Origin: Candidatus Scatocola faecigallinarum
GTDB taxonomy: Bacteria; Pseudomonadota; Alphaproteobacteria; RF32; CAG-239
DNA length: 64,000 nucleotides
Assembly: GCA_018713605.1 (NCBI GenBank)
Contig: DVOM01000018.1
Coordinates: 6,557 to 70,556, forward strand
Direction of reading: 5' to 3'
Part shown: positions 4,179-39,184 of the stretch, in pieces
How the letters are laid out: every line of letters begins with the position of its first letter
Numbering within the stretch: the stretch's first letter is position 1
Program-made: the position numbers and the translations under genes
The notes under the pieces: generated by a model
What the model was told of the DNA's origin: nothing
Databases searched by the model: none
The model's input: the letters and a program-made list of their open reading frames with translations, nothing else

Positions 4179-6830
4179 TCAGTTTCTGCTCAAAACGTCA
4201 AAAACCTTTTTGGTCAGGTCGCCGAGGCTGAATGGTTTGGCCAGAAAGTCAAAATCCTGCGAGCCGGCAAGTTCGCGGCGGGCAATTTCTTCCGAATAGC
4301 CGGAGGCCAAAATGATTTTGACGGCGGGAATCTGTTCGCGGACGCGGGCGGCCAGTTCGGCGCCGTTAATGCCGGGCATTACCATATCAGTTATCAGCAG
4401 GCCGAAGTTTTTGTCGTGCTCCAATTGTTCTAGCGCATTCTCGGCCGAATTGCAAGCGACAACGTCAAAACCTTTTTTCTTTAAGGCGCGGACGCCGAAA
4501 GCCCGAACCGAATCTTCATCTTCGACGAAGAGAATGCGGGTTGAGGCAGCGTCCGGATTTTCCCGGACGCTGCGGTCAATGGCCGAAACGTTCAGGCCGA
4601 ATATCAGTTTCTGGCTGACGGCGACGGGAGAGGTAATTTTCTCCTGAACGGTCAGAACCGGCGAACCGTCTTTGGCTTTGACAGTGTCCTGTTCGTCGCC
4701 GCGTTTTTCCTCTTCATCGTCGACGGCGGCGTCAAAACGCGGCAGATGAATGGAGAAGGTGGTGCCTTTGCCGACAATGCTTTCGACTTTGATGAAGCCT
4801 TCGGTCTGGCGGACAATGCCGTAGACCATGGCCAGACCGAGGCCGGTGCCGGAGCCGACGACGTTTTGTTTGGTGGAGAAGAAGGGTTCAAAGATGCGGG
4901 TAAGGTTTTCAATCGGAATGCCGCAGCCGGTGTCTCTGACATCGATAACCACAAATTCGCCGGGTTTGATTACGTCGGCGCCGAACCGGTAAGGTTCGGA
5001 GAGCGTTTCGGTGCGGGTGGAAATGCTGAGCGTGCCGCTGCCGTTCATGGCGTCTTTGGCGTTGACGGCCAAGTTGATGATAACCTGCGAAAACTGAACC
5101 GGGTCGACGCGGATATATCCCAGGTCGCTGCCGTGGTAAAATTCAAGCACAATCTGTTCGCCGAGAATCCGTTTGAGCATATGGCTGAGTTCGACGAAGT
5201 TTTCGGTAACGTCGATCAGTTTCGGCTTCAGGGGTTGTTTGCGCGAGAAAGCCAGCAGCTGGCGAACCAGCCCGGCGGCACGATTGGCGTTTTGCTTGAT
5301 TTGGATCAGGTCGGTAAAGGACGGATCGCCGACGCCGTGACGTTGAAGCAGCAGGTCGCAGAAGCCGATCATGGCGGTCAGCAGGTTGTTGAAGTCATGG
5401 GCGACGCCGCCTGCCAACTGGCCCATGGCCTGCATTTTCTGAGCTTGGGCAAACTGCATCTCCAGCGTTTTTTGTTTGGTGGCGTCAATCATATACAGAA
5501 CCAAACCGTCGATTTCGCTGATGTCGAAAGAATAGAAGCGGCGCATCGGACTGATGTAGAGCTGAATGATGCGTTCTTCGCGGCCGAGACTGACGTGGAC
5601 GTCCAGCGAAGCCGAGGCATCGGCGGAAGCGTAAATGGCGGAAAAGTGTTTTTTGAGTTCGGCGGCGTCTTCGGTTTTGACATAGTCAAAGATGCTTTTG
5701 AGCAAAATGTTTTCCTTGGCGGCGCCAAGAAAACTCCGGACTTTGGCATTGCAATCGGTTATTTGACCGTCGCGGTTGATGAAGACGATGCCGACCGGCG
5801 CGTAATTGAAAAGCCAGCTGATTTTATCCAGCGAAGCGCTGAGTTCTTTTTTGACGTCGCGGTCGGACGGAATGCCGGCGACGGCAACGCCGCGAATCTT
5901 GTACTCCCGGTTGCCGCGGAAACTTTCCTGAGCGACGAAACATTCGATCGTTTCATGTGCGGTGCTGACAAAAAACAACCTCCCTGACCAGGTCGTGTTC
6001 TGCGGCGTTTCGACGTTTTCGCCCAGATATTTGCGGAAATCGGTGCCGATAAGGTCTTCGCGGGCAACGCCGACAATGCGGGCAAAGGCGTGGTTGGCGT
6101 ATTCGATTTGAAAATCGCGGGTGCAGGTATAAAGCCCGACCGGGAGATCGTCAAGAAAATCGTGAAGGTTTTTACGCTCTTCCTGAAAAACGTGCTCCAT
6201 GTTTTTGGCGGCGGTAATGTCCTGGAAGTTCCAGTATAAATAGGTGTCTTTTTTGATTGCTTTAATTGAAAAAGGGCCTTCGAAAATGTCGGTTTTTTTT
6301 AAGAATATCGGCCGGACGGTAATTTCGAACCATTCTTCGTCGGCAAAAATTCTGTCCCGGTCATGGTGCAGGTTTAACGCCAGCGTGACTTTTTCGGCGG
6401 CAAGGTCGCGGCAGGCGGTCTGCAGGCGGTAGAAAGCCGCTTTGTTGAGGCGGTTCTCGCTGAGCTGTTTTTCCAGATATTCGAGAATCGGTTCATTTTT
6501 GAGCAGTTCTCTGGCGACGTCGTTCTGAATGACCGGTTCTCCGGCAGCATTGTCAATCCGGCGGGCTTTGAAGTCGTTTTTGATAATTTCGTTGGCAAAA
6601 CCGCCGTAGCTGATGGCTTCTTCGCCGGCGCGGAGGGTTTTGATGGTAAGCGCAAGGCAGAAGATGCACAGTATCAGCATGGACAGAATCAGATAAAGGT
6701 AATATTCCGGGTATACCATAAACAGGATTATCGCCGCGGCGAGGGCGATGAGCGAATAGGCAAGCTGCAGCAAACGCTTTTGCAGCAGTTTATCGGGCCT
6801 GTGGGTTTTTAAGCTGCATAACATATCCAA
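4179..6830 (-). CDS. Hybrid sensor histidine kinase/response regulator with two N-terminal TM helices and PAS domains (CckA-like architecture)
   Basis: H-box [27 protein letters not shown]-box [12 protein letters not shown]-boxes DTGCGI and [11 protein letters not shown], and a C-terminal receiver [13 protein letters not shown]...[16 protein letters not shown]. The TM-PAS-PAS-HK-REC order matches the alphaproteobacterial cell-cycle kinase CckA, but I cannot prove orthology. Confidence 0.8.
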
Positions 6831-10082: not shown

Positions 10083-11628
10083 TGTCTTTCAGCATTGTCA
10101 ACGGTTCTTCGCGGAGCTTGTCTTTTTCGAACTTTTCCATGTAAACGCGGAGCGTGGCGCCGCTGGTGCCGGTTCCCGAGAGACGGTAAACGATGCGCGA
10201 ACCGTCGGCGAATTTGACGACCAGACCGTTTTTGGTCGAAGAACCGTCAACCGGGTCGTTGTAAACAAACGGGGCGGCTTCGCTGACTTCAAAGCTGCCG
10301 AACTTTTTGCCGTTCAGTTCCGGGAGCCTGTTTTCCAAATCGGCCATCAGTTTGTCGGCAACGTCTTTGTCTATGCCTTCAAAGTCGAAACGGATATAAT
10401 AGCTGCGGCCGTATTTTTTCCAATGGTCGACGGTAATTTCCTCAACCGATTTGCCTGTAGCGGCAATAATGCTCAGCCAGAACAGAATGGCCCAAATGCC
10501 GTCTTTTTCGCGGATATGGCTGGAACCGGTACCAAAGCTTTCTTCGCCGCAGAAGGTAATGCGGTTGGAATCCATCAGGTTGACAAAGTATTTCCAGCCG
10601 GTCGGAACCTCGTAGCAGTCCATGCCCAGCGCTTTGGCCGTGCGGCAGACGGCCGTAGACGTCGCGGCAGATTTGGCCACGCCGTAAATGCCGTTTCTGT
10701 AAGCCGGAATCAGTTTGTAGTTATCGGTAATAATCGACAGGCTGTCGGAAGGCGAGACGAAAAATTTTCTGCCCAGAATCATGTTGCGGTCGCCGTCGCC
10801 GTCATTGGCCGAACCGAAGTCGGGTGCGCCGTCGCCGTACATGATACCGATGAGTTCCTTGGCATAAACCATGTTCGGATCCGGGTGCAGGCCGCCGAAA
10901 TCCGGTTTGGGAACCGCATTGATGACCGATCCCGGCGCGGCGCCGAGGATTTCTTCAAAAATGCGCTTTCCATAAGGGCCGGTAACGGCGTTCATGGCGT
11001 CGAACTTCATGGTAAAGCCGGATTTGAAAAGCTTTTTCAGCGCTTCGAAGTCGAAAATCCCTTCGAGCATTTCGACATAGTCCTTAATCGGATCGATGAC
11101 TTCAATCGTCATGTTCTCCAGTTTCTGAACGCCGATTTTGCCAAGGTCGACGTCGGGCGCTTCGAGAATCTTGTATTCGTTGATGGTTTGAGAGTTTCTG
11201 TAGATGGCATCGGTAATCGATGTCGGAACCTGACCGCCGGTTTCGTCGGAATACTTCACGCCGAAATCGTTGTCGATGCCGCCCGGGTTGTGGGAAGCGG
11301 AGAAGATAAAGGCGCCGTTGGTTTTGTTCTTGAGCAGAACGTTGGAACCGGCCGGCGTTGACATGAAACCGTTCTGGCCGATGATGAGTTTGGCTACGCC
11401 GTTGGCCGCGGCCATTTTGATAAATTTCTGAATGGCAACGTCGTTGTAATAACGGCCGTCGCCGCCTACTACATAGGTTTTGCCTTCTACGCCGCCGATG
11501 GTATTGAAAACGGTTTGAATGAAGTTTTCAAAATAGTTGGGCTGCATCATGACCTTGGTTTTTTTGCGCAGGCCGCCGGTACCCATTTTCTGGTCGGTGT
11601 AGGGGGTAGTAGCAACTGTTTTTATCAT
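10009..11628 (-). CDS. pgm: Phosphoglucomutase (alpha-D-glucose phosphate-specific)
   Basis: Active-site loop FIFSASHNPGG, metal loop GSANDGDGDRNMI, 539 aa. Confidence 0.92.
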   Translation of the reverse strand: MIKTVATTPYTDQKMGTGGLRKKTKVMMQPNYFENFIQTVFNTIGGVEGKTYVVGGDGRYYNDVAIQKFIKMAAANGVAKLIIGQNGFMSTPAGSNVLLKNKTNGAFIFSASHNPGGIDNDFGVKYSDETGGQVPTSITDAIYRNSQTINEYKILEAPDVDLGKIGVQKLENMTIEVIDPIKDYVEMLEGIFDFEALKKLFKSGFTMKFDAMNAVTGPYGKRIFEEILGAAPGSVINAVPKPDFGGLHPDPNMVYAKELIGIMYGDGAPDFGSANDGDGDRNMILGRKFFVSPSDSLSIITDNYKLIPAYRNGIYGVAKSAATSTAVCRTAKALGMDCYEVPTGWKYFVNLMDSNRITFCGEESFGTGSSHIREKDGIWAILFWLSIIAATGKSVEEITVDHWKKYGRSYYIRFDFEGIDKDVADKLMADLENRLPELNGKKFGSFEVSEAAPFVYNDPVDGSSTKNGLVVKFADGSRIVYRLSGTGTSGATLRVYMEKFEKDKLREEPLTMLKDIAKIAADIAEIEPRTGKQQPDVIT

Positions 11629-21571: not shown

Positions 21572-22834
21572 TTATGCTATGCTGCGAACGAGTTTTTTGA
21601 CCTTTTCAAATTTGTCTTTGTCAATATGCCCGCCGGCCTCTTCCAGCGTTTTGGAGAACAATTTTAGTTCCTTGGGTGTGCCCCTGTCAATCCTGGTAAC
21701 TGAAATATTCATTTCGTCCCAGGTTTCAAACATGTCTTCGGCATTGATAATATTGCCTATTTGAACAACGACGAAAGCCCTTATTTCAAAATTCATGTCG
21801 GACTCGGCCAGTTTTTCGGAAAGAATCTTGCGGGCAAGGTCAACTTTACGTACCGGCGAAATACGGTGGCTGCTTTCCGAAAACCACAGCGGTTCTTCGT
21901 CATTGAAACGTTCTTCGTCGGCCAGCCAATCGCCGGGTTCCTTATCGAGCAGACAGAGGTTTATCTGTTTGTCTGAGACGCCGATAAAGTCGATGACGCT
22001 GTTTTTGACGGTGGCGGCGGTGATGACTTCATAACCTTTTTGTTTCAGAACGTCGAGGGTGGAGTTTCCTGCCGGGCGGGGTTGTGCGGGAGACGGGGCA
22101 TCATTGCGCTGGGCGTTGTTTTTTTTGTCTTTGCTGTTTTTGCTTTTGGCCGGCGCCGGTTTGGGCGTTTCTTTCGGTTCCTCTTTGGGGGCTTCTGCGG
22201 GTTTGGCGTCGCTGAATTTTTTGTCGAACGAATCAAAGTCGAAATCAAAATCGTCATCCGTATCTTCGTCAAATTTAAACAACGAATGGTCAAATGTCGG
22301 GGAAACGGCCGGTTCCTCTTTTTTGGCGGCGGGTTTGGCCGGTGCTGCGGGTTTGGCCGAAGCGCTCAGTACGCCGGGACGAACCGGATCGCTGTAGTCG
22401 GTAATCGGAGCGCGGGTTCCGCGCGGGCGGATTTCCTTATAGGATTTTTTCTTCTTGACGACGGGGACGCCTGCGGTTTTGGCAATAATCTTGACCGGTT
22501 TATAGAAAAGGCTGCGAAAGGCGCGCATGGGAAAAAGAATGACGTTTAAGAATATTTTTCCCCACGGAATCAGGCTCAAAGCGGCCCAGCTGGTCAGCCA
22601 CAGCGGAATGAACGTAAGAATGATGAGCACAAACGCCCATTCTTTCGGATCGTCGATAACCCATCCGTCGTTCCATTTTTCCCAGGCATAGTTCCAATGT
22701 GCGGCATTAAAAATGTCAAAGCGCCAGTTGCGGAGCATAACAACCCTTATGCCTTCCAGGAAAAAGATACTCCAGAAGCATCCGACAAAAATGATTCTTG
22801 TTAAGATGAATAAGGGTTTCAAACTGTTCTCCAC
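21572..22834 (-). CDS. Hypothetical membrane protein: Trp-rich N-terminal module, Pro/Ala/Lys-rich and acidic linker, globular C-terminal domain
   Basis: 420-aa ORF ending 27 nt upstream of virD4. Its N-terminal roughly 110 aa are paralogous to ORF 22947-23441. Linker: AKPAAPAKPAAKKEE...FDEDTDDDFDFDFDSFD...KPAPAKSK. The C-terminal domain shows a NERD/PD-(D/E)xK-like pattern, VIDFIGVSDKQINLCLLDKEPGDW. Confidence 0.75.
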   Translation of the reverse strand: MENSLKPLFILTRIIFVGCFWSIFFLEGIRVVMLRNWRFDIFNAAHWNYAWEKWNDGWVIDDPKEWAFVLIILTFIPLWLTSWAALSLIPWGKIFLNVILFPMRAFRSLFYKPVKIIAKTAGVPVVKKKKSYKEIRPRGTRAPITDYSDPVRPGVLSASAKPAAPAKPAAKKEEPAVSPTFDHSLFKFDEDTDDDFDFDFDSFDKKFSDAKPAEAPKEEPKETPKPAPAKSKNSKDKKNNAQRNDAPSPAQPRPAGNSTLDVLKQKGYEVITAATVKNSVIDFIGVSDKQINLCLLDKEPGDWLADEERFNDEEPLWFSESSHRISPVRKVDLARKILSEKLAESDMNFEIRAFVVVQIGNIINAEDMFETWDEMNISVTRIDRGTPKELKLFSKTLEEAGGHIDKDKFEKVKKLVRSIA

Positions 22835-22946
22835 ATTTCCTGTTTTTCCGTCCCGCGGGCGGATTCTTCACCTTTATGACAGAGTATACTCTGAAATTGG
22901 TTAAAAAGTGTTTAGTAAATTGTTAACGCAACATTCTGTTCTGCCG

Positions 22947-23441
22947 CTATTTCTTTTCGGAGGCGGATATTTTCTCCTGAATCGAACGACGGATTTTTCC
23001 GGTTTCCTTTTCCCGGGGTTTGGCGCTTTCTTTCAAACGCTGTTCAATAATTTCTTCCATATTGGGTTTGCTTTTGGCTGCGCCCATGTTTTTAAGAATG
23101 ATACGCGGCGTGTTTTCGCCGTATTTTCTGATCATACGGTTGTTATACCAGGTAATCGGAAAGAGCAGGATTTTGACAAAGCTGAGACGGTAGAAAAAGC
23201 GCCAGCCCCAGAACCACAGCGGAATAAGCGCCAGCAGCATGCCGACAAAAAGGTAGTCCCTGCCGGTTTTGATTTTGCCGCCGCTTTCCCAGAAAGTGTT
23301 GATAACCTGCCAGTCGCGCATGTTCAGAATATCAAAGTTCCATATTGAAATCATTATTATCCGGGCTGCATAGACGAAGACGACGGTCCAGACGGCTCCG
23401 ACGATTGCGGCTTTGAGTATTTTAAATAATTTTCTTATCAT
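22947..23441 (-). CDS. Hypothetical small membrane protein, paralog of the N-terminal module of ORF 21572-22834
   Basis: RIIMISIWNFDILNMRDWQVINTFWE...LIPLWFWGW...LLFPITW aligns with RVVMLRNWRFDIFNAAHWNYAWEKW...FIPLWLTSW...ILFPMRA. ATGA overlap with the upstream ORF. Confidence 0.75.
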   Translation of the reverse strand: MIRKLFKILKAAIVGAVWTVVFVYAARIIMISIWNFDILNMRDWQVINTFWESGGKIKTGRDYLFVGMLLALIPLWFWGWRFFYRLSFVKILLFPITWYNNRMIRKYGENTPRIILKNMGAAKSKPNMEEIIEQRLKESAKPREKETGKIRRSIQEKISASEKK

Positions 23442-24934
23442 CTGCCTTCAGTTCCTATGCGCCCCAAAGCGGCGACGCCGGAGAGCGAGTCTGCCATGCG
23501 CTGATTGCGTTCGATGTTTTCAACCTGATGCCTTTTGTCTTTGTATATTTTGGTAAAGGTATCAATGTTTTCGTCGGTAAGGCCAAGTTTCTGTTTGAGC
23601 AGGGCGACGCGGTCGCGGCGCTCGTTGTTCTGGTCTTTCTGAACAAGGTTTGCGGCAAAGGCGCGATTGACTTCTTCCATGGAAGCGCTGCTGCCTTTGT
23701 CAAAGTCCATATCGGCAACGGCGGCTTCGTAGAGACCGCGTTTCTGTCCGGGTTCCGGCGTCGCGACCTTTTTCAGTTCGTCACTCAGAGCTACGACTTC
23801 CACGGCCAAATCGCCGCGCGGCTTTTTGTCCCGTTCGGTAAACTTGCGTTTGCTCATGGTTTTCTGCGCTTCTTTAACGGCGCTCTGAGAACTGTTAAAC
23901 AGTTTGGCGGCAAGTTTTGCCGGATTGCCGCCGTTGGCTGCCTCCATATCCATCCGGCGGGCAAAAAGCTGCATGGCGTGGGCTTTTTGTTTGTCAAACT
24001 CTGCCTTAAGGTCTTTGCCCTGATAATAGTCTTTATCTTTGGCTAAGTCGAGCGTCATGCCGGCGCGGGCATAGTTGGAGGCGAATTGCTCGGCGATGGC
24101 CATGTTTTCGTAAAAGTTTTTAATACCCTGTTCGGCAACTTTGAAAAACTGCTGTTTTTCTTTTTCATCCATATTGGCGAGCAGAACTTTGGTCGAATCC
24201 GAAACTTTGGCTTCGTTGAGTTTGCCTTCCTTAATCAGTTTCAGATTCTTGAGCTGTTCTTCCTGATGTTTGTCGATCAAATCGGAATTGGCCTGTCCGG
24301 AAGAAAGGGCATGGTCTTCTATCTGGTTGTAGCGGGTCTCGGTTTCATAGGTTTTGCCTTTTTCAATCTGTTTTTCGCGCATTCTTTCCAGCATTTTGCG
24401 CTGTGCCCAGTAATAGCCTTTGTCAAGTTTGGCCGCAGTTTTGGTCCAGAGCCAGTTGGCACCTTCCAGCAGCCAGTCCTCGTACATATATTTGATAACG
24501 TCTTTTTCCTTAAACGGACCTTTTTTCTCCGGATCGGGATCTTGGTTTTCGTCACCGTCCTTGGAACCGGCGTCGGCAATTTTTTTGTCGCCTTTTTTAT
24601 TCTGATCTTCTTTGGCTTTGTTGTAGACGGCCTGTTCGTCGACAGAGAGCAATCCGCGTTTGTTCTTTTCTTCCAGAATGTTCAGGTAATCCTGCTGTTC
24701 GCTGACGGAAAGCGTATCGTAAGTCGGCGTTTCGTTAACGTTGGCCGTGTTTTCCGGACCGTTGTTTTCACTGACCTGAGCGATTGGTTCGGCGGTATTG
24801 GCATTTTCCCGGGCAACGGGTTTGATTTCGGAAACCGTCGCGGTCGGTTCCGGACGGGGAGCCGGTGCAGGTTGCGGCGCGTCCGTGCGGGGCGTCTGCT
24901 GCGGTGTCGGGTTGGTGTTCTGGTTGTCTGCCAT
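23438..24934 (-). CDS. Hypothetical soluble protein: Pro/Thr/Asn-rich N-terminus followed by long charged helical (coiled-coil-like) regions
   Basis: 498-aa ORF with no TM helices, preceded by an AT-rich spacer (24935-25022). I recognise no family. Confidence 0.7.
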   Translation of the reverse strand: MADNQNTNPTPQQTPRTDAPQPAPAPRPEPTATVSEIKPVARENANTAEPIAQVSENNGPENTANVNETPTYDTLSVSEQQDYLNILEEKNKRGLLSVDEQAVYNKAKEDQNKKGDKKIADAGSKDGDENQDPDPEKKGPFKEKDVIKYMYEDWLLEGANWLWTKTAAKLDKGYYWAQRKMLERMREKQIEKGKTYETETRYNQIEDHALSSGQANSDLIDKHQEEQLKNLKLIKEGKLNEAKVSDSTKVLLANMDEKEKQQFFKVAEQGIKNFYENMAIAEQFASNYARAGMTLDLAKDKDYYQGKDLKAEFDKQKAHAMQLFARRMDMEAANGGNPAKLAAKLFNSSQSAVKEAQKTMSKRKFTERDKKPRGDLAVEVVALSDELKKVATPEPGQKRGLYEAAVADMDFDKGSSASMEEVNRAFAANLVQKDQNNERRDRVALLKQKLGLTDENIDTFTKIYKDKRHQVENIERNQRMADSLSGVAALGRIGTEGR

Positions 24935-25022
24935 TATTTTTGTCCTGTCAGTCTTTTAATTGTTTATATTCTAGCACTAAAATTCTTTTTTGTCTATATT
25001 TATTATATTTTCGCTAAAAGGT

Positions 25023-25994
25023 TTATGCCTTTATTTTCTTAAGGTAGCAGCCAAGTTCACGATTGACGCGGATACCGTCCTGCGGCGTCGGCTTTATCAG
25101 GCCGAAAAAACGGGGCTGAAGCTTGGACGTGTCAATCGGGGCGTAGACCGCGGGGTTGTTAATCAGCACCTGATAGGCGCCGTCAGGATCTTTCTGAGCC
25201 GTTTTGAAATAGTTGTTGACGAGCCGCTCGGCGTCGACGGGGAACTTTTTCTTCCGTATAGCCTCAATGTACCGTTGCTTGCGCTCAATGCGGCGTTGGT
25301 GTTCTTCGTAAATTTCACGTTCTATTTTGCGGCGTTTGGCCTTCAGACGGCGTTCTTCCAGAGCGATTTCGCAGCCTTCCATTTCAATCAGGATTTCCAC
25401 ATAGGAGATGACTGCCAGCTGGAGAATTTCATCTTCGCAGTGTTCGGCAAAGTCGAGCAGTTCTTCATCGGAGGCTTCGGGATTAAGGCCGGCCAGTACC
25501 GGGCCGTGAACCTTGAACATAATTTCCCAGCCCTTGACGGCGTCATCGGCGATCTGCGAACCTGTCCGATATTTGTAATGCGGCGAAAGAAGCGAAGCGT
25601 CGACGCGAAAGTCGGGCGCTTCGGCGTCATTCATTCCGGCCATCATAACGATGGCGTTGCTAAAGTTTTTGTAAGCTTCAAACAGGGCTTTTTCGCCCTC
25701 GTCAAGAACCGGTCCCGCGTTTTTGGGTGCCGCGGCCGGAGCGGCTGCGGGCGCAGGTGCCGGCGGTTCTTCCGTTTTTTCTTCAAGGCCGGTATCAACG
25801 TCTTCCAGTTCGGAACTGATGAATTGGTTTAACAGCCGTTCAAACTCGTCGTCTTCGGCAACTTGGTCGTCATAAGACTTTGTTTCTGCCGGCAGGACGA
25901 TATCTTCTTCGGGCGTTTCAACGGCGGGGCTGACCGGCGCGTTTTGCGGTTTCTTTTTGAACACTTTGATTTTCTTGGGGCTGTTTTCGCTCAT
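25023..25994 (-). CDS. Hypothetical protein with acidic N-terminus, a PAPAPAAAPAAAP linker and a helical C-terminal half
   Basis: 323-aa ORF, 9 nt downstream of ORF 26004-26285. I recognise no family. Confidence 0.7.
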   Translation of the reverse strand: MSENSPKKIKVFKKKPQNAPVSPAVETPEEDIVLPAETKSYDDQVAEDDEFERLLNQFISSELEDVDTGLEEKTEEPPAPAPAAAPAAAPKNAGPVLDEGEKALFEAYKNFSNAIVMMAGMNDAEAPDFRVDASLLSPHYKYRTGSQIADDAVKGWEIMFKVHGPVLAGLNPEASDEELLDFAEHCEDEILQLAVISYVEILIEMEGCEIALEERRLKAKRRKIEREIYEEHQRRIERKQRYIEAIRKKKFPVDAERLVNNYFKTAQKDPDGAYQVLINNPAVYAPIDTSKLQPRFFGLIKPTPQDGIRVNRELGCYLKKIKA

Positions 25995-26003
25995 TTTTAA
26001 CCT

Positions 26004-26285
26004 CTAATCAACGCGGATGGTGGAAATTTTGCGTCCGGACGCCGTATCAAGAATGATGATGCGGTCGCCTTTGCCGCCGTCGGAAATGCCGATATACAAC
26101 AGGTTGTCCCTGATTTGGATTTTCTGCAACGTGCTGCCGGCCGGTTCGCCGAGGCTGATTTCTTCCGGCAGACGCGGCGCGGAATGCGTTTTTTTTAATA
26201 AGGTTCCGAGCAGCATGAGACTGCCGAAGACCAGCAGGAAAGTAAGTATGAAAACGACGGTTTTAACCAGCTTTAATTTGTCCAT
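26004..26285 (-). CDS. Small membrane-anchored protein (one TM plus a beta-rich ectodomain)
   Basis: 93 aa. TM helix VVFILTFLLVFGSLMLLGTLL, followed by LLYIGISDGGKGDRIIILDTASGRKISTIRV. Divergent from rluD. Confidence 0.65.
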   Translation of the reverse strand: MDKLKLVKTVVFILTFLLVFGSLMLLGTLLKKTHSAPRLPEEISLGEPAGSTLQKIQIRDNLLYIGISDGGKGDRIIILDTASGRKISTIRVD

Positions 26286-27433: not shown

Positions 27434-28303
27434 ATGGATAATACTTTCGCTCTTAATGGACTTGACTTCTCGCCAGAAATTAACATGGCACGCTACTTAC
27501 AGAGTATCCGCAAATTTCCGATTTTGGAACAGGACGAGGAATTCGAACTGGCAACCAGATACAAGGAAACCAAGGATGAAAAAATCGCTTACAAACTGGT
27601 TACTTCACACCTTCGTCTGGTGGTTAAGGTCGTATCCAAATACCGCGGATACGGATTGCCGCTCGGCGAAATGATTTCGGAGGGCAATATCGGTCTGCTT
27701 TATGCGGTCGACAAATTTGAGCCGTCCAAGGGGTTTCGTTTTTCCACCTATGCTCTGTGGTGGATTAAGGCCTCGATACAGAAATATATTCTCAATTCGT
27801 GGTCGCTGGTCAAAATCGGTACAACGGCCGCGCAGAAAAAACTCTTTTTCAATCTGCGCAAAATCAAGAACAAGCTTAATTTGATGGATGACCGCGAACT
27901 TTCGCACGAAATATTGGGTAATATCGCCTCTTCTTTGGACGTTACGGTTCAGGACGTTACCGATATGAACATGCGCCTGAAGTCGCATGACGGTTCGCTG
28001 AATGCGGTTTTGGACACTTCGTCCGAGAGCGGTACCGAGTGGATTGATTTTATTTCCGACTCAAAGCCCAATCAGGAAGAGGTTCTTGCGTACAGTGAGA
28101 CAATGCAATACCGCCGCCGTCTGTTCAACGAGGCGCTCGGTTGTCTGAACAAGCGTGAAAAAGACATTTTGTTCAAAAGGCGTTTGGCCGACAAGGCGGT
28201 AACTCTTGACGACCTCAGCAAGGCCTATTGCATTTCCAAGGAACGTGTCCGGCAGATTGAGCTGAACTCGATTAAGAAGATAAGGAAGGCAATAGCTCAA
28301 TAA
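27434..28303 (+). CDS. rpoH: Heat-shock sigma factor RpoH (sigma-32)
   Basis: Region 2 GNIGLLYAVDKFEPSKGFRFSTYALWWIKASI. RpoH box TTAAQKKLFFNLRKIKNKL. Region 4 ISKERVRQIELNSIKKIR. Confidence 0.92.
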   Translation: MDNTFALNGLDFSPEINMARYLQSIRKFPILEQDEEFELATRYKETKDEKIAYKLVTSHLRLVVKVVSKYRGYGLPLGEMISEGNIGLLYAVDKFEPSKGFRFSTYALWWIKASIQKYILNSWSLVKIGTTAAQKKLFFNLRKIKNKLNLMDDRELSHEILGNIASSLDVTVQDVTDMNMRLKSHDGSLNAVLDTSSESGTEWIDFISDSKPNQEEVLAYSETMQYRRRLFNEALGCLNKREKDILFKRRLADKAVTLDDLSKAYCISKERVRQIELNSIKKIRKAIAQ

Positions 28304-28645: not shown

Positions 28646-29143
28646 TTAGTCTTTTTGGCGGTCAATGAGTTCGGTGCCCCAGTCTTCGGCCAGATGCGTC
28701 AGTTTGGCGTCGATATTCTTGAGCCTTTTCTGTGCCGAGGCTTTGGAAAGGAATATAAACAGATTGGGGATTTCATAATAAGCGACCAGTCCGAGTCCCG
28801 CCGAACCAAGCATGATAATCAGATTAAAAATGTCGCCGACGATGAAAAAGGCATTATGTATCGTAAAAGTGTTGATAATGCTCATCAGATAAATAAAGAC
28901 GCCGGCAAGGTTAAAACTGCCGACAATTACCAGTTTGTCGGTGTTTTTGGGGTCGGTAATCAAAATCGTAAAAGTCGGGAGCAGGCCGATAAGCAGAACC
29001 ATGACCGCCGGCAGGGTGCTGATGACGATGAACATCAGGCCGATGAACAGAATCATCTTTTGGACGACCGAAAGTTTGCGGTATGATTTTTTGAGGTTGG
29101 CCAAAGGTTTTTTGGTATTTTCTTTTTTCATTTGATTACCCAC
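28646..29143 (-). CDS. Hypothetical 4-TM membrane protein, translationally coupled to the kinase-like gene
   Basis: 165-aa ORF with four hydrophobic helices and a basic N-terminus. Overlaps the upstream ORF by 16 nt. Confidence 0.7.
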   Translation of the reverse strand: MGNQMKKENTKKPLANLKKSYRKLSVVQKMILFIGLMFIVISTLPAVMVLLIGLLPTFTILITDPKNTDKLVIVGSFNLAGVFIYLMSIINTFTIHNAFFIVGDIFNLIIMLGSAGLGLVAYYEIPNLFIFLSKASAQKRLKNIDAKLTHLAEDWGTELIDRQKD

Positions 29144-31170
29144 AGAATGAGGTTGAAGACGAAAGAAGCCAACATGACCATGATGGCCAGAATGGACGTG
29201 AACCGGATGGCCAGACTGCGGGCTTCTTCATCCATTTTATAACTGTTGTTAACCAGCTTGTTTTTTTCGGCCAGCAGAAAGTTGATGTCGCTGACGGCTT
29301 TTGTGTAGTTGGCCTTGTCCTTGTTGCGAGCCTCTTCGTTTTCGAGAATGTCGCAAAGTTCGTGCAGTTTGCCGTTTTTGTTGATTTTGAGAAGTTCGCG
29401 TTCCAAAAACTTCTGGTATTTCAGGTTATGGTAGCTTTTGATGATTGCAACCGAAGAACTGGCCAGCCATTGAGAAAGGTGGGGCAGCTGTGCCGGACCG
29501 AATTTGTTTTGCATGCTGGTATACAGGCGCAGAATGGCGCTGGCCTGCAGATAATCCTTACCTGAACCGAGGTCGGTAAGAATACCGTCGATTTTTTTGC
29601 CCATTTTGCAACGCAGGTAGGCAATGATGTTGCGGTCGTAAGGCATGCTCTTGACAATCTGCCGGGCGTAGGTGTTGTCCAGCGCGCGCAGTATCCGGGT
29701 CGGCGAATTGACGAATTCGTCGCCGAGCAGCGGACTGACACAGGGAATGTCATCGTCGAAGTCATACATGATGCGATCAAGGCCGTAACCGATGTCCTGA
29801 CGGTTGATGTATATGCGGAATTCGGCGGCATTGGCCGGCGAACGCATGTGTTCCTGTTCCAGATACCAGAGCTTTATCAGTTCGGAAGAAAACAGTTCAT
29901 GAAAAACCTTGGTGTCGGAGCCTTTGCGCAAGGCATAGAAAATGGCTTTCGGGGCGCCGTCGGGAAAAAGGCACAGGTCGCGGAGACGGAGAGGCAGCTC
30001 CGGCGCCAGCATGATGCTGATTTTAGCAATGATGACGTCAGTGCTGGTCGAGCCTTCCGGCGAAGCCGTGAGCATTTTTTCGATTTTGCCGGCCAGTTTT
30101 TCATTTTCAAGGCCGTTTTTAATCCAGTCGAGCAGTTTTCCCGAGCGTACGAGTTCGTATGCTTCCTGCGGCGCCGCACTGATGGCGATGGCAAAATCGC
30201 GTGCCGCGTAGAATTTTTCGCCGTTGAAGGAGATGGTGCGCTTGGGGCGGTCGGTTGTGCCGCTGCTGGTGTAATTGTTTGATTTGCCGTCCAGCAGATT
30301 ATAGGCCTGGACGTAATTGAGGCGCGCATCGACGTTATCGTTGAGCAGGCTGCGGAGAACGGGCGAAATCTGGTTGGGGATTTTGTCGTCGCCGAGCAGC
30401 GCCTGATAGCTGCCTTTTTTCTGCTTGATGCGCAGGAGTTCGGGCGTGCTGATGTCGCCGCCGAGTTCATGTCCGAGGTAAAGCGCGGTCATGACGGCGC
30501 CGATAGCATAAATGTCGTTTTTTTCGCTGCCGTTGCCGCGGCCTTCCGGTATGGACAGCATGTCTTCGATCGTTTCGTAAGCGGCCGGTTGGTAGAAGGC
30601 CGGAAAAGAAGCGGCACAGTCGCCGATGAGGATTTCGGTTTTTTCGGCGTTGGCATAATAAAGGTTGTCGGCGCGGATGGCGCGATGGGTAATGTTGTAG
30701 TTTTTGAGAGCTTCAACGGCGGAAAGCAGGCTGATGAGCGTGTTCTTGAACTTTTCGGAGCTGCGGATGTCCAGTTCGGTTTTGCCGCCCTCGAAAACTT
30801 TGCCGTAGGGGATTTTATAAATGAGAGCCAGATTGCGCGACTTTTCGGGCAGCCAGGTAACGATGCCGAATTCGACAAGTTTCATCAGGCTGCGGCATTC
30901 GATGGATTTGACATAAGGAAGAATGGTCGAGCGCGGGCAGGTGGCGTTGCTGCAAAGCAGGGCAAAAAGGCCGCGTTTGGTATCTATGCGGTCTATGACG
31001 CGAAAGGCTTTGGCGCCGTTGCTGTCAAGCCAGGGTAGCGGCTGGGCGTAGTCTATTTCGTATCTTTCCTTGACCAGAAATCTGTTGGCTCCGATTTCGC
31101 TGCTGCTTTCTGCAGGTTCCGCGGTGTTTTCGGGAGCCGTTTCCGGGGCTTCGTTTTCTTCTTCTGCCAT
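29128..31170 (-). CDS. Tail-anchored protein with a Hanks-type Ser/Thr kinase fold, predicted catalytically degenerate (pseudokinase candidate)
   Basis: Catalytic loop ITHRAIRADNL has HRD changed to HRA (codons at 30664-30693). DFG position reads IGDCAAS, APE position reads SIPEG, subdomain IX reads NDIYAIGAVMTALYLG. No clear GxGxxG loop. The C-terminal TM is ILAIMVMLASFVFNLILWVI. Confidence 0.7.
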   Translation of the reverse strand: MAEEENEAPETAPENTAEPAESSSEIGANRFLVKERYEIDYAQPLPWLDSNGAKAFRVIDRIDTKRGLFALLCSNATCPRSTILPYVKSIECRSLMKLVEFGIVTWLPEKSRNLALIYKIPYGKVFEGGKTELDIRSSEKFKNTLISLLSAVEALKNYNITHRAIRADNLYYANAEKTEILIGDCAASFPAFYQPAAYETIEDMLSIPEGRGNGSEKNDIYAIGAVMTALYLGHELGGDISTPELLRIKQKKGSYQALLGDDKIPNQISPVLRSLLNDNVDARLNYVQAYNLLDGKSNNYTSSGTTDRPKRTISFNGEKFYAARDFAIAISAAPQEAYELVRSGKLLDWIKNGLENEKLAGKIEKMLTASPEGSTSTDVIIAKISIMLAPELPLRLRDLCLFPDGAPKAIFYALRKGSDTKVFHELFSSELIKLWYLEQEHMRSPANAAEFRIYINRQDIGYGLDRIMYDFDDDIPCVSPLLGDEFVNSPTRILRALDNTYARQIVKSMPYDRNIIAYLRCKMGKKIDGILTDLGSGKDYLQASAILRLYTSMQNKFGPAQLPHLSQWLASSSVAIIKSYHNLKYQKFLERELLKINKNGKLHELCDILENEEARNKDKANYTKAVSDINFLLAEKNKLVNNSYKMDEEARSLAIRFTSILAIMVMLASFVFNLILWVIK

Positions 31171-36932: not shown

Positions 36933-36935
36933 GGC

Positions 36936-37346
36936 CTAAATCTTCAAAATGTGCAGGATTGCCGGTTCAATGTCCGAATATTCTTCTAGCACTTCCATAT
37001 CTTCTTTGTCAATGATTTGATACCGCCGGCATTCGGCATTGTAAGCCAGATAGTCGAATTCGTCGCGGCCGAGTATAACAAGTTCGGGGCGGCCGGAAAA
37101 AGGACTCATTTGGTTGGCCGGGACAATGTCGAGGAAAATTCGCCCTTCGGGAGCAATGCCGAAAATGCCTGCACCGTCGTAGGAAATGCCGTTGCAACGG
37201 TGTAAAAACTCCAGAAAACCTTCGGGAAGCGGGGCGTTGCGGTTTTGAGCCAGTTCTTTTTGAGCCAGAATTATTTTTTGGACATTTACCGGCTTGCCGA
37301 GGTATCCGGGACGGATTTTGCGCAGGCGTTCAAAAAGCCGGTTCAT
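36936..37346 (-). CDS. SUKH-superfamily (SMI1/KNR4-like) immunity-type protein, second copy
   Basis: QKELAQNRNAPLPEGFLEFLHRCNGISYDGAGIFG...LVILGRDEFDYLAYNAECRRYQIID. ATGA overlap with the upstream HNH-like gene. Confidence 0.6.
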   Translation of the reverse strand: MNRLFERLRKIRPGYLGKPVNVQKIILAQKELAQNRNAPLPEGFLEFLHRCNGISYDGAGIFGIAPEGRIFLDIVPANQMSPFSGRPELVILGRDEFDYLAYNAECRRYQIIDKEDMEVLEEYSDIEPAILHILKI

Positions 37347-39184
37347 CTTTTGCCTCTCTGTGCACGCAGCGTGTATTGGATGAGTTTTTCGAACTTCTGT
37401 TCGTCTTCAAACTGGCTGATGGTTTTAATGGCGGATTTCTTGGCGGCACGCAGTGCCAGATATTGTTTGCGTTTTTCAATCAGCTCGTTGCGAAGGCTGA
37501 GGTATTCGTCTTTTTTGCGGGAGATTTTTTCAATGCGTTTCAGCAGCCCTTTCGGTTTTTTTCTTTTTTGTTTGGGGAGCGCTGCTTCTGCGGCAGCGGT
37601 TTGTCCTTTTTCTTCTTTTTTTGGCGGCTGCCGGGTTTCCGGTTGGGTTTGAGTCTTCGTTTCCGTAATTTCCTGCAAAATTTTGCCGAGTTTTTCCTGT
37701 TTTTGTTTCAGTTTTTTCTGCTGTTTCTTTTCGCGGCGCGAAATTTTGGCTTTGGGCTGCCAGTATTCGTCGCTTTTTTCGAGCAGGAGCTGTTTGCTGC
37801 GGAAAGAGTCCAACGCTTCTTTGTTGTACTGTTTGTAATGCGTTTGTCCGAAGTCGCATTCTATTTGGAAAAGTTTGTTGAAACCGCCGTAGAACGCAAG
37901 GTTTTCGCCGATTTCGATGCGGGAAACGTAGTATTCGGCGCCGTTGACCATGCCGGTCCGGTCAAGAGAGTGGGCAAAGAAGTGATAGGGCTCGATAATC
38001 AGGCAGAGGTTTTTGAATTGGTTTACTTCGGCAAAATTGGTCTTTTCGCCGCTGTCCTGAACGGCGACCTTATGATGTACGGTAAGTTCGGGTCCGGTAA
38101 CCGGATTGCCGTTTTCGTCCCGGGCCAGAATGACGCTGATGAGCCCGGCGGCACGGATGCCGGCCGCCTGTCCGTCGGTTATCGGATCTCCGGCGCGGGT
38201 TTCTTCGGGAATAAGTTTGCGCTTTTTCAGCGGTTCCAGCATTTCCTGCGTATAATTCGTTTCAAGGACGTCAAAACCGCCGGTTACGCCGTATTGTTCC
38301 ATGTGGCGGATGAGCGTTTCGGTATAGCGCGGGTCGTAACCGCGCAGTTCCATGATGCGGCGCAGCGATGTCTTGTTGCGGCGGATAAAGGCTTTGACAA
38401 AACGGTATTTGGCTCCCAAAAACAAATTAGCCCGCTCATCCTTTTCGGCGTCGGGCTTGCTTTTGGCAATATAGCGGTTGTAGAGTATCTGAGAGAAGTC
38501 GTAGGCATTCAGGCGCTTGAAGTCCTGAGGCGAAATGCCTTCCTTTATCAGCAGCTCGGGAAGGTTGCGTTCCAGCAGCCGGAAACTGCGAAACTGCCGG
38601 AAGACCGTCCAGGACGGCGACTGGCTCAAATCGTAATCGGCGGGTCTGACGCCGGCGGTTTTTTCCGGGTTTCGCTGCCGATAGGTTTCGGAGAGCTTTT
38701 TGGAACTTTTGCCGTCTTTCTTTTCGTCGATTTTATCGACCGTGCCGTAAAAATCCATGCGGATAATATGTTTTATTTCGCGGGGCAGAGCGTAGTGGCG
38801 CTTGTTGATACATTTCATGCCCCAGGCGTGGAGCTGTCCGGCCAAATCAAGGCGGAGCTGTTCGCGCGCGTCGTCCTCGGTTATGTGCGAGCGGGCGGCA
38901 AACTCGCGGACAAAGCTTCCCTTGTAGAGGTTTTCGATATCGGCCTGAACGATGGTTGCGGCGTTTTTCTCCAGCATGAGAATATCGTCACAGGTTTCGG
39001 ATATCTTGTTTTGATAGAAGCTGTCAAAACTGTTGATGTCGCTGTGCGGGGCGGCGGCATTTTCGTCGGGAATGGGAAGGTTTGAAGCGGTAATGGAGTC
39101 GAGAATCCGGTCAAGAGAAAGGTCTGCTTCGTCGACGAAGTCAGGAAACGCATCGTTTAATTTCTCCACTCGTTTCTTAGCCAA
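37343..39184 (-). CDS. Large HNH/beta-beta-alpha-Me nuclease-like protein with a lysine-rich C-terminal tail (toxin/effector candidate)
   Basis: Core at aa 368-405 (about 37970-38080) is LTVHHKVAVQDSGEKTNFAEVNQFKNLCLIIEPYHFFAH, fitting HH - SG turn - NL.LI - H-x3-H. Tail aa 476-613 is Lys/Arg/Gln-rich (KAKISRREKKQQKKLKQKQEK...KQKRKKPKGLLKR...RAQRGKR). Confidence 0.6.
   Translation of the reverse strand: MAKKRVEKLNDAFPDFVDEADLSLDRILDSITASNLPIPDENAAAPHSDINSFDSFYQNKISETCDDILMLEKNAATIVQADIENLYKGSFVREFAARSHITEDDAREQLRLDLAGQLHAWGMKCINKRHYALPREIKHIIRMDFYGTVDKIDEKKDGKSSKKLSETYRQRNPEKTAGVRPADYDLSQSPSWTVFRQFRSFRLLERNLPELLIKEGISPQDFKRLNAYDFSQILYNRYIAKSKPDAEKDERANLFLGAKYRFVKAFIRRNKTSLRRIMELRGYDPRYTETLIRHMEQYGVTGGFDVLETNYTQEMLEPLKKRKLIPEETRAGDPITDGQAAGIRAAGLISVILARDENGNPVTGPELTVHHKVAVQDSGEKTNFAEVNQFKNLCLIIEPYHFFAHSLDRTGMVNGAEYYVSRIEIGENLAFYGGFNKLFQIECDFGQTHYKQYNKEALDSFRSKQLLLEKSDEYWQPKAKISRREKKQQKKLKQKQEKLGKILQEITETKTQTQPETRQPPKKEEKGQTAAAEAALPKQKRKKPKGLLKRIEKISRKKDEYLSLRNELIEKRKQYLALRAAKKSAIKTISQFEDEQKFEKLIQYTLRAQRGKR

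Follow-up and report, generated by a model that had tools for sequence, protein, structure and literature searches.

Coupling proteins determine what a type IV secretion system (T4SS) exports, and we know of almost no dedicated membrane partners for those of the VirB/D4 type. In this work we analysed a stretch of 64,000 nucleotides (positions 6,557 to 70,556 of contig DVOM01000018.1, here called the window) from Candidatus Scatocola faecigallinarum, an uncultured gut alphaproteobacterium; proteins identical or nearly identical to its own abound in gut metagenomes. On the minus strand of the window five genes, named here after the length of their products (93, 323, 498, 164 and 420 amino acids, aa), lead into a gene for a VirD4 coupling ATPase, which is followed by a candidate toxin gene and a candidate immunity gene. 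The original prediction was that the five could be one module, serving as a coupling complex or in substrate recruitment, or a set of effectors. Four of them are tied to the virD4 cassette and the 93-aa gene is not. With moderate confidence we propose that these four genes form a previously undescribed coupling-ATPase accessory module of hundreds of uncultured gut Alphaproteobacteria, and we infer for their products a role as coupling-complex subunits, adaptors or substrates. What is new is an accessory set of a type IV coupling protein that is built from protein families without names.

The Dot/Icm system of Legionella (DotL, DotM, DotN, IcmS/IcmW and LvgA) resembles this locus in organisation only. 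In both, a gene for a membrane protein stands directly before the gene for the ATPase, in the manner of dotM and dotL, the partner protein joins N-terminal transmembrane (TM) helices to a cytoplasmic domain, and small soluble adaptors accompany a proposed substrate recruitment. Nevertheless the 420-, 164-, 323- and 498-aa proteins are unlike DotM, DotN, IcmS/W and LvgA in Pfam, NCBIfam, PDB profile and Foldseek searches, and the VirD4 protein found here is of the type IVA (VirB/D4) kind, with its nearest relatives in virB2-B11-D4 operons. The parallel that had been drawn with DotM beside DotL is reduced to an analogy, given that no similarity to DotM in sequence or fold was found.

The killing T4SS of the Xanthomonadales, with its X-Tfe effectors and X-Tfi immunity proteins, is also chromosomal, of VirB/D4 type and associated with toxin-immunity pairs, with VirD4 as the presumed toxin receptor. 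There the toxins are cell-wall or lipid enzymes, the immunity proteins are periplasmic lipoproteins and the toxin set is dispersed and polymorphic, whereas here the candidates are a small HNH DNase that would act in the cytoplasm and a cytoplasmic SUKH protein, the toxin is a single conserved gene fixed at virD4, and there is an extra membrane partner, the 420-aa family. No Pfam family, XVIPCD-type models included, was found in the 207-aa toxin or in 21 of its orthologues, and the tail of the toxins from distant clades is unrelated to XVIPCD in sequence. The rvh T4SS of the Rickettsiales is likewise a chromosomal, vertically inherited VirB/D4 system of small-genome Alphaproteobacteria with scattered loci and with some components duplicated or oddly extended. 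In rvh, virD4 directly follows virB8-B9-B10-B11; in the bacteria studied here such a link between virB and virD4 survives in a single locus, L095, where it is interrupted by a dnaJ-like gene, rpmB and the 420-family gene.

The position of the 420-family gene is the strongest mark of the module. A genome scan that took in the more distant members found the family in 385 species-level genomes, all of them uncultured gut or rumen Alphaproteobacteria. A locus was informative if it had the C-terminal domain and its sequence continued for 2.5 kb or more downstream; in each of the 142 such loci virD4 follows the 420-family gene within 2 kb, with a median gap of 16 nt and a VirD4 identity of 55-97% (a few contigs are shared by the two sets of loci). 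The upstream neighbours in the distant clades differ, are often on the opposite strand and encode BatA-D, L28, ABC-F, NhaP or SecDF. As the same adjacency persists amid different flanking genes, down to a VirD4 identity of 55%, it is maintained by selection and is not inherited synteny, which bears out the predicted tie of the 420-aa gene to virD4. The unit conserved in the distant clades consists of four genes, for a 420-like protein, VirD4 and homologues of the 207-aa and the immunity proteins, and the comparison shows the ancestral, self-contained cassette to be 420-family membrane protein, VirD4, HNH DNase-like toxin and SUKH immunity protein. Co-directional open reading frames (ORFs) upstream of the cassette in distant clades had sizes fitting VirB genes; this assignment was rejected, as they are the BatA-D, L28, ABC-F, NhaP and SecDF genes just named. 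An extra ORF of 145-154 aa lies between the 420-like gene and virD4 in L112, L122 and L135, and one of 317 aa (10551-11504) in L143.

Closer to the window, a scan with one genome per species found close relatives of VirD4 in at least 265 genomes, and the best 80 of these loci (74-97% identity) were taken with 10-kb flanks. The order is preserved among them: rluD and rpoH are read in one direction and, divergently from them, the 93-, 323-, (498-), 164- and 420-aa genes and virD4 in the other. Of the related species-level loci, 66 reach from rluD to virD4, and 50 of these have the five-gene architecture; the sizes of the products follow a constant pattern of about 95, 310, 430-730, 162 and 404-511 aa. 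Measured over the 80 species against the proteins of the window, median identity is 80% for VirD4, 77% for RpoH and 65% for RluD; in the block it is 55% for the 420-aa protein, 49% for the 323-aa protein, 44% for the 93-aa protein, 37% for the 164-aa protein and 32% for the 498-aa protein, whose gene tblastn detected in only 33 of the 80 loci. VirD4 is more conserved than RpoH and RluD, both encoded 6 kb away. It is under stronger constraint than the heat-shock sigma factor RpoH, and under strong purifying selection. Some of the contigs that carry the locus (L018, L054, L058, L060, L078 and L100) were deposited as Lactobacillaceae, Lachnospiraceae, Bacteroidaceae, [Ruminococcus] gnavus or Lactobacillales, titles which are probably errors of binning or labelling of metagenome-assembled genomes.

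The 93-aa gene stands outside the module. Its membrane-anchored product matches Pfam DUF6476 (PF20082) with 30.4 bits against a cut-off of 24, over model positions 5-90 of 91, and a relative of identical length is annotated as a DUF6476 family protein in its source record. Azospirillum lipoferum has a 112-aa membrane-anchored homologue (hhalign probability 96.7%, E = 4e-10 against the 93-aa family) that is divergent from rluD-rpoH with no virD4 nearby; a similar small gene takes the same position by rluD-rpoH in Sinorhizobium meliloti, with a weaker match. In more distant gut clades, in which the cassette lies away from rluD, the 93-aa gene is not beside the cassette. Because the DUF6476-rluD-rpoH arrangement exists in Azospirillum without virD4, the gene is excluded from the module: it is a boundary housekeeping neighbour, belonging to a trio of DUF6476, rluD and rpoH that is conserved in Alphaproteobacteria. 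The five orphan genes of the original prediction were one too many in this respect, and where it recognised no named family among the five, this gene does belong to one. Synteny with rluD/rpoH independent of virD4 was found for this gene alone and not for the 420-, 164- and 323-aa genes. When all eight proteins were scanned against Pfam, NCBIfam, PADLOC and PHROGs, only the DUF6476, VirD4 and YrhA assignments were above threshold.

The 164-aa protein is a Trp-rich two-helix module with two TM-like segments and a basic tail, and is a predicted inner-membrane protein. Its suggested paralogy with the N-terminus of the 420-aa protein is confirmed by BLASTP (29% identity over 136 residues, E = 2e-15), and the profiles of the two families match each other in every genome examined. 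Distant clades have a single 420-like gene; intermediate clades (L143, L147, L163 and L175) have two full-length copies in tandem, of which the upstream one, of 357-385 aa, has a degenerate C-terminal domain (E from 1e-4 to 1e-10, vs 1e-51 for the downstream copy); and in the clade of the window a truncated 164-aa copy precedes the 420-aa gene, with the 498- and 323-aa genes before it. This series of one copy, two full copies and one full plus one truncated copy shows that the 164-aa gene is a decayed tandem duplicate of the 420-aa gene, the upstream copy having lost its C-terminal domain. A PDB profile search with the 164-aa family gave only low-complexity or chance matches.

The same comparison shows the 323- and 498-aa genes to be later, clade-specific additions upstream. 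The 323-aa protein is soluble and acidic, with a disordered N-terminus that bears a conserved DDEFE.LL..FI helix. Its AlphaFold2 (AF2) model has a mean predicted local distance difference test (pLDDT) of 75, rising above 90 over residues 100-230, and consists of a helical bundle and a long helix between residues ~95 and 250. The protein has no match in Pfam, NCBIfam, PADLOC or PDB profile searches, and its model none below E = 0.9 in Foldseek against the PDB. The 498-aa protein is hydrophilic, Pro-rich and largely disordered or helical, without a TM segment and without a family in the Pfam, NCBIfam, PADLOC and PHROGs scans. It is the fastest-evolving protein of the block (430-730 aa in relatives), with a mean column identity of 17% and only 3 invariant columns in its alignment (A6). 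Its sole conserved motif is F-K-x-x-D-[IV]-I-x-[YF]-M-x-x-W-[LF]-L at residues ~140-165, and the C-terminus is Gly/Arg-rich, with G-R within the last six or so residues in about 16 of 26 orthologues. We regard it as a candidate substrate or adaptor.

It could be argued that only the 420- and 164-aa genes are tied to VirD4, the other two encoding unrelated cytoplasmic proteins, for instance a scaffold or a protein of cell organisation. In the distant clades neither gene is found, and the cassettes there do without them; a promoter-like element, described below, splits the 323-aa gene from the rest; the 498-aa sequence is almost unconstrained and the 323-aa model has no informative structural match. 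However, in the intermediate clade (L143, L147 and L163) the cassette is preceded by a 323-like gene with no rluD or rpoH nearby, which links the 323-aa gene to the cassette and not to rluD. Moreover the 498-aa and 164-aa genes share an ATGA overlap in the window, and all loci of its clade have the 498-aa gene in this place. We consider the separation of these two genes from the module unlikely.

The VirD4 protein of the window scores far above the Pfam cut-offs for T4SS-DNA_transf (193.1 bits, cut-off 20.1), TraG-D_C (84.4, cut-off 22) and TrwB_AAD_bind (58.9, cut-off 20.5). It has TM-like segments at residues 20-38 and 91-109, a Walker A motif PPGTGKT and a Walker B motif VLDEF, and aligns from end to end, including the anchor and the Walker motifs, with a plasmid VirD4 (32% identity, E = 9e-117). 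Its all-alpha domain contains an insertion of ~60 aa, and its C-terminal tail is acidic. Among the NCBIfam equivalogs (VirD4, TraG-Ti, IncP TraG and others) the best score was 135.7 bits against a cut-off of 250 and the rest lay far under theirs, and phmmer against the PDB gave nothing at 1e-3. It is a distinct lineage within the VirD4/TraG family.

The closest annotated relatives (32-35% identity) stand at the ends of virB2-B11-virD4 operons on alphaproteobacterial plasmids, and this kinship would suit a block that is the remnant of a conjugative or mobilisable element, in which VirD4 served DNA transfer, the neighbours were decayed or novel DNA-processing (relaxosome-like) genes, and DNA might in principle be nicked by the HNH and nuclease-like proteins. 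We judge such an origin very improbable. The flanks of the block are housekeeping genes, namely rluD, rpoH, genes for a P-type ATPase and an ArsR regulator, for MipZ, for a penicillin-binding protein with a SPOR domain, for phosphoglucomutase, PFOR and GcrA, and motA/B. The GC content of the block resembles its surroundings, and neither of the two tRNA genes of the window is at a block boundary. On these grounds the block is part of the core chromosome and not an island. There is no relaxase, integrase or repeat; the chromosomal position is the same, with vertical inheritance and housekeeping flanks, in at least 80 species; and tblastn found the C-terminal domain of the 420-aa protein in none of 72,556 plasmids and 50,697 phages. 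The strong purifying selection on VirD4 also speaks against a remnant.

The presence of a VirB machine was sought with plasmid VirB proteins in all 3.0 Mb of collected locus sequence. In L095 (1-8735) the order is virB9 (3' end), virB10, virB11, a dnaJ-like gene, rpmB, a 420-like gene, virD4, toxin and immunity genes. In L129 a VirB3-like ORF and virB4 are found 7 kb upstream of the cassette. In related clades the cassette thus has virB9-virB10-virB11 or virB3-virB4 at a distance of 1.3-7 kb, from which it follows that these bacteria encode a VirB-type system scattered in the chromosome, and the link to a secretion machine that had been suggested becomes plausible. Because virB11 abuts virD4 in the closest plasmid relatives, the 420-family gene sits at the junction of virB11 and virD4. 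Two oddities of L095 are that the VirB9 C-terminus runs on into a SPOR peptidoglycan-binding domain and that the VirB10/TrbI protein, of 2,282 aa, has eleven 'beta-flower' repeats.

The 207-aa protein that follows VirD4 belongs to a family in which H148, N163, H173 and H177 are invariant in 22 orthologues (alignment A9). This H/N/H/H pattern is of the colicin/pyocin HNH DNase type and aligns to the motif of pyocin AP41, the DNase HNH motif of which is the best PDB profile match (E = 0.07). No match to the toxin was found in Pfam or NCBIfam, nor to the 21 orthologues in Pfam. A match to the toxin profile comes directly after virD4 in 77 of 133 loci, and the immunity gene co-occurs with the toxin gene. 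The immunity protein matches the YrhA family (NCBIfam NF038335, 64.2 bits, cut-off 55) and, below threshold, Pfam SUKH_6 and SMI1_KNR4. The toxins of distant clades end in a conserved basic tail, ...SGGKNKQDRSV.AGF...MPGR, with an invariant ...GR at the end; this C-terminal GR and that of the 498-aa protein may, as a hint only, reflect a shared export signal.

Synteny breaks downstream of virD4, where about a quarter of the near-clade species retain the pair of 207- and 182-aa ORFs. We considered a variable effector island at this place and rejected it, as species lacking the pair have housekeeping genes there (murA, trpB, ligA, ispA and others, identified by eye). Elsewhere the window encodes another candidate pair of toxin and immunity protein. 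It comprises a 613-aa ORF with an HNH-like stretch (...VHHKVAVQDSGE...NLCLIIEPYHFFAH...), read by eye, and a 136-aa ORF that follows it and resembles the SUKH immunity family weakly, with 24% identity over 125 aa to the immunity protein of L175 (E = 6e-8). Neither ORF has a Pfam match on record.

The 420-aa protein has two hydrophobic helices with a Trp-rich acidic loop between them, a disordered linker with the conserved acidic-aromatic motif F.HSLF.FD..DDFDFDFD, and a C-terminal domain. The two helices and the basic stretch KKKKSYKEIRPR after the second would place this domain in the cytoplasm. Its near-invariant signature is GDWLADEERFNDEEPLWFSESSHRISPV ... GNIINAEDM..W, of which GDWLADEERFNDEEPLWFSESSHRISPV is the longest invariant run in the whole block (alignments A1 and A3). 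Searched against 1.84 billion cluster representatives, the family profile matched 379 at E <= 1e-3, 165 at <= 1e-10 and 87 at <= 1e-30. Profile searches with the family or with a broad alignment of the domain revealed no sequence relatives in the PDB, only low-complexity or chance matches.

The AF2 model of the 420-aa protein is confident in the helices and the C-terminal domain only (pLDDT 75-87). The order of elements in the domain is alpha-beta-beta-beta-loop-alpha-beta-beta-beta-alpha-alpha, which fits the alpha-beta-beta-beta-alpha-beta core of the PD-(D/E)xK nucleases. Foldseek matches to the PDB are weak (E from 1e-3 to 0.3, TM-scores <=0.46 on the target). The top one, 9a5m (the YDJA-YDIS integrative model), is unrelated, as are several to purine nucleoside phosphorylases and viral polymerases. 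Most of the stronger matches nevertheless agree in having the restriction-endonuclease fold (the R.BspD6I small subunit, Nt.BspD6I, McrC, R2 endonuclease, Can2/Cdn1 and AF1548), and 3fov, a protein of unknown function, was retrieved with a probability of 0.99. Pfam NERD (PF08378) matches residues 261-356 with 12.9 bits (E = 0.17), below its cut-off of 22.1, and none of nine distant relatives of the domain. The strand pattern hD-hhh...hhhhD/E-K-x-G-x-W of residues 279-303 resembles the core of NERD, whereas the signature of the 420 family, W.A[DE]E...P.W...SP...N..D....W, is not that of NERD. In the gut clades D282 and D297-K298-E299 do not vary, but they are not retained across the wider family (alignment A12), in which W-x-A-x-E, S-P, N and W are the invariant positions. 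Since conservation of the catalytic D ... (D/E)-x-K set does not extend to that family, we describe the domain only as a putative nuclease-like fold.

These folds are the basis of the main competing explanation, in which a membrane-anchored motor-plus-nuclease system would act on DNA and not in toxin delivery. The VirD4 hexamer would translocate DNA, the 420-aa protein would use its C-terminal domain to cut this DNA or to hold it, by analogy with McrB-McrC, and the HNH protein would be a second nuclease, restrained by the SUKH protein; the whole might defend against plasmid or phage DNA or process DNA for export. An ATPase of a DNA-translocase family flanked by two nuclease-like proteins agrees with this, as do the Foldseek nuclease folds (R.BspD6I, McrC, R2 endonuclease, Can2/Cdn1 and AF1548) with the weak NERD match, the self-contained nature of the cassette in varied contexts, and the occurrence of the domain in fusion with, or next to, other P-loop NTPases and a TIR domain, which is typical of conflict systems. 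The likeness to McrBC, which combines an AAA+ GTPase motor and a PD-(D/E)xK nuclease subunit, lies in a nuclease-fold domain beside a ring NTPase, with McrC among the Foldseek matches and an AAA+ fusion in P0473; it is limited by the weakness of the fold match (E 0.03-0.16), the unconserved triad, an ATPase of the FtsK/VirD4 type and the membrane anchor. Moreover every fold match is weak (E >= 1e-3), the canonical D...(D/E)xK is not conserved across the wider family and the PADLOC scan found nothing. Single-copy, vertical, order-wide conservation (55-97% identity) is unlike that of defence islands, and virB9-B11 stand beside the cassette in L095. We regard a motor-nuclease role as unlikely.

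The C-terminal domain is mobile, without a Pfam model, and occurs in other architectures (P0417, P0438, P0473, P0449, P0475 and P0461). In proteins of ~1,500 aa it separates TPR repeats from Roc-COR-A-COR-B-TIR, in P0473 it precedes an AAA+ ATPase, and it is also found as tandem copies and in a 1,802-aa protein without Pfam domains. No relatives of the remote homologues P0470, P0417 and P0403 were found in genome and metagenome collections, the final metagenome scan recovering just the species of the window again. There are also AT-rich remote relatives (28-35% GC), in which the 420-like gene ends a conserved cluster (L172, 2038-7523; L174, 5531-11329) encoding a membrane protein of ~160 aa, a protein of ~340 aa with two HTH_3 domains, proteins of ~150-210 and ~200-230 aa, and a lipoprotein of ~420 aa, none with a Pfam family except HTH. 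In L175 and L176 (3260-6590) the VirD4 cassette is preceded, at 3-7 kb, by homologues of the ~200-230-aa and ~420-aa cluster proteins, with 33-39% identity for the lipoprotein and flanking ORFs of similar size, and L176 has a two-HTH_3 ORF at its edge too.

A further view, which we think decidedly unlikely, is that the domain is a new, widely used 'NTPase-partner' module, defined by W-x-A-[DE]-E ... P-x-W ... S-P ... N-x-x-D-x-x-x-x-W, and that VirD4 belongs to a new membrane machine, more than an accessory of a classical VirB channel. Such a machine might be a nuclease-gated translocon for DNA or toxin, or might work with uncharacterised envelope proteins, for example those of the ~420-aa lipoprotein cluster linked in the AT-rich relatives.

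The reading that we prefer, at chances we would put as about even, is that the block encodes predicted inner-membrane and cytosolic accessory proteins of VirD4 in a scattered VirB/D4 system, which probably delivers a DNase toxin. The 420- and 164-aa proteins would lie in the inner membrane by their Trp-rich hairpins, beside the two-helix anchor of the VirD4 hexamer, and the 420-aa protein would offer its acidic linker and cytoplasmic domain to the ATPase. In this way it could assist in the recruitment, retention or gating of substrates. The main substrate would be the DNase toxin, injected into competing bacteria, and the producer would be shielded by its SUKH protein. The 323-aa protein might be a cytosolic adaptor or chaperone, and the 498-aa protein a rapidly evolving substrate or adaptor.

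Several observations weigh against this reading. VirB genes are absent from the 64-kb window and from the 10 kb around virD4 in ~100 loci of its clade, so that the VirB machine of this genome is extrapolated from more distant clades. The toxin of the window is without the C-terminal tail of other clades, and the toxin is conserved and not polymorphic. In the clade of the window the toxin and immunity genes have been lost from most species, whereas VirD4 and the accessory genes stay highly conserved; the toxin cannot therefore be the only reason for the system. The TPR-Roc-COR-TIR and AAA+ fusions of the C-terminal domain point to a general NTPase-coupled role or to conflict systems, and the very distant AT-rich homologues of the 420 family are not beside virD4.

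The layout of the locus is given in Table 1; every ORF and every gap of the predicted gene order was reproduced by the ORF listing of the 17-32 kb region. The true start of the 420-aa gene is probably a TTG at 22822, which has a GGAG 6 nt upstream, matches the M-K-P-L start of the orthologues and is the choice of gene callers; the product would then have 416 aa and the spacer after the 164-aa gene 124 nt. From the gene model, the immunity gene is probably that of 149 aa and not the longest ORF.

Table 1. Positions in the window of the genes, protein domains and sequence elements discussed in the text
Feature	Position	Strand	Remarks
Immunity candidate, SUKH / YrhA family, 149 aa	18239-18688	minus	longest ORF 182 aa, to 18787
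HNH toxin candidate, 207 aa	18681-19304	minus	
virD4, 738 aa	19328-21544	minus	
420-aa gene, GTG start	21572-22834	minus	27-nt gap to virD4
C-terminal alpha/beta domain of 420-aa protein, ~165 residues	21575-22063	minus	
N-terminal Trp-rich two-helix membrane module of 420-aa protein	22472-22834	minus	
Small GC-rich hairpin	22847-22863	minus	spacer between 164- and 420-aa genes, ~15 nt upstream of ribosome-binding site of 420-aa gene
164-aa gene	22947-23441	minus	112-nt gap to 420-aa gene
498-aa gene	23438-24934	minus	4-nt ATGA overlap with 164-aa gene
Promoter-like element TAGACA-N17-(TGc)TAGAAT	24968-24996	minus	in 88-nt spacer
323-aa gene	25023-25994	minus	88-nt AT-rich spacer to 498-aa gene
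DUF6476 gene, 93 aa	26004-26285	minus	9-nt gap to 323-aa gene
rpoH	27434-28303		
680-aa and 165-aa ORF pair	28646-31170	minus	
613-aa and 136-aa ORF pair, second candidate toxin-immunity pair	36935-39184	minus	
tRNA genes	14454; 50870		

The promoter-like element before the 498-aa gene was found by a consensus scan, with 10 of 12 consensus matches and an extended TG, and both hexamers and their spacing are preserved in 9 other species. This suggests a transcription start for the 498-, 164- and 420-aa genes and virD4; its placement would make these four one unit and the 93- and 323-aa genes another. No terminator-like sites were found on the minus strand between 18000 and 27500. The evidence for the hairpin before the 420-aa gene is weak: it folds at the same place with other stem sequences in 6 species (z from -1.2 to -3.0), that of the window being the weakest (z = -1.17, no better than shuffles), and RNAalifold on a MAFFT alignment gave no consensus structure for the spacer. 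Just upstream of the hairpin there is a conserved motif, AAACACTT.TTAACCAAT; a reading of TTAACCAAT as a CtrA box was dropped, its spacing not being preserved in three species.

In the vicinity of rpoH the window also encodes a 680-aa protein with a C-terminal TM helix, the N-terminal half of which looks kinase-like by eye only, and then an overlapping 165-aa multi-pass membrane protein. The pair has no Pfam family and is conserved beside rpoH in most species of the clade.

We found nothing relevant in the literature on type IV secretion in RF32/CAG-239, on DUF6476, on VirD4 with NERD or on orphan coupling proteins. Hundreds of Alphaproteobacteria of gut and rumen, abundant yet uncultured, have an unnamed family fixed beside virD4, and their VirD4 is more conserved than the heat-shock sigma factor, which implies a secretion function central to the gut life of these bacteria, plausibly contact-dependent killing by a DNase. 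The 420/164, 323 and 498 families are concrete candidates for its recruitment machinery and substrates. Moreover, the new conserved domain recurs in TIR proteins resembling nucleotide-binding leucine-rich repeat (NLR) proteins and so ties secretion biology to the domains of conflict systems.

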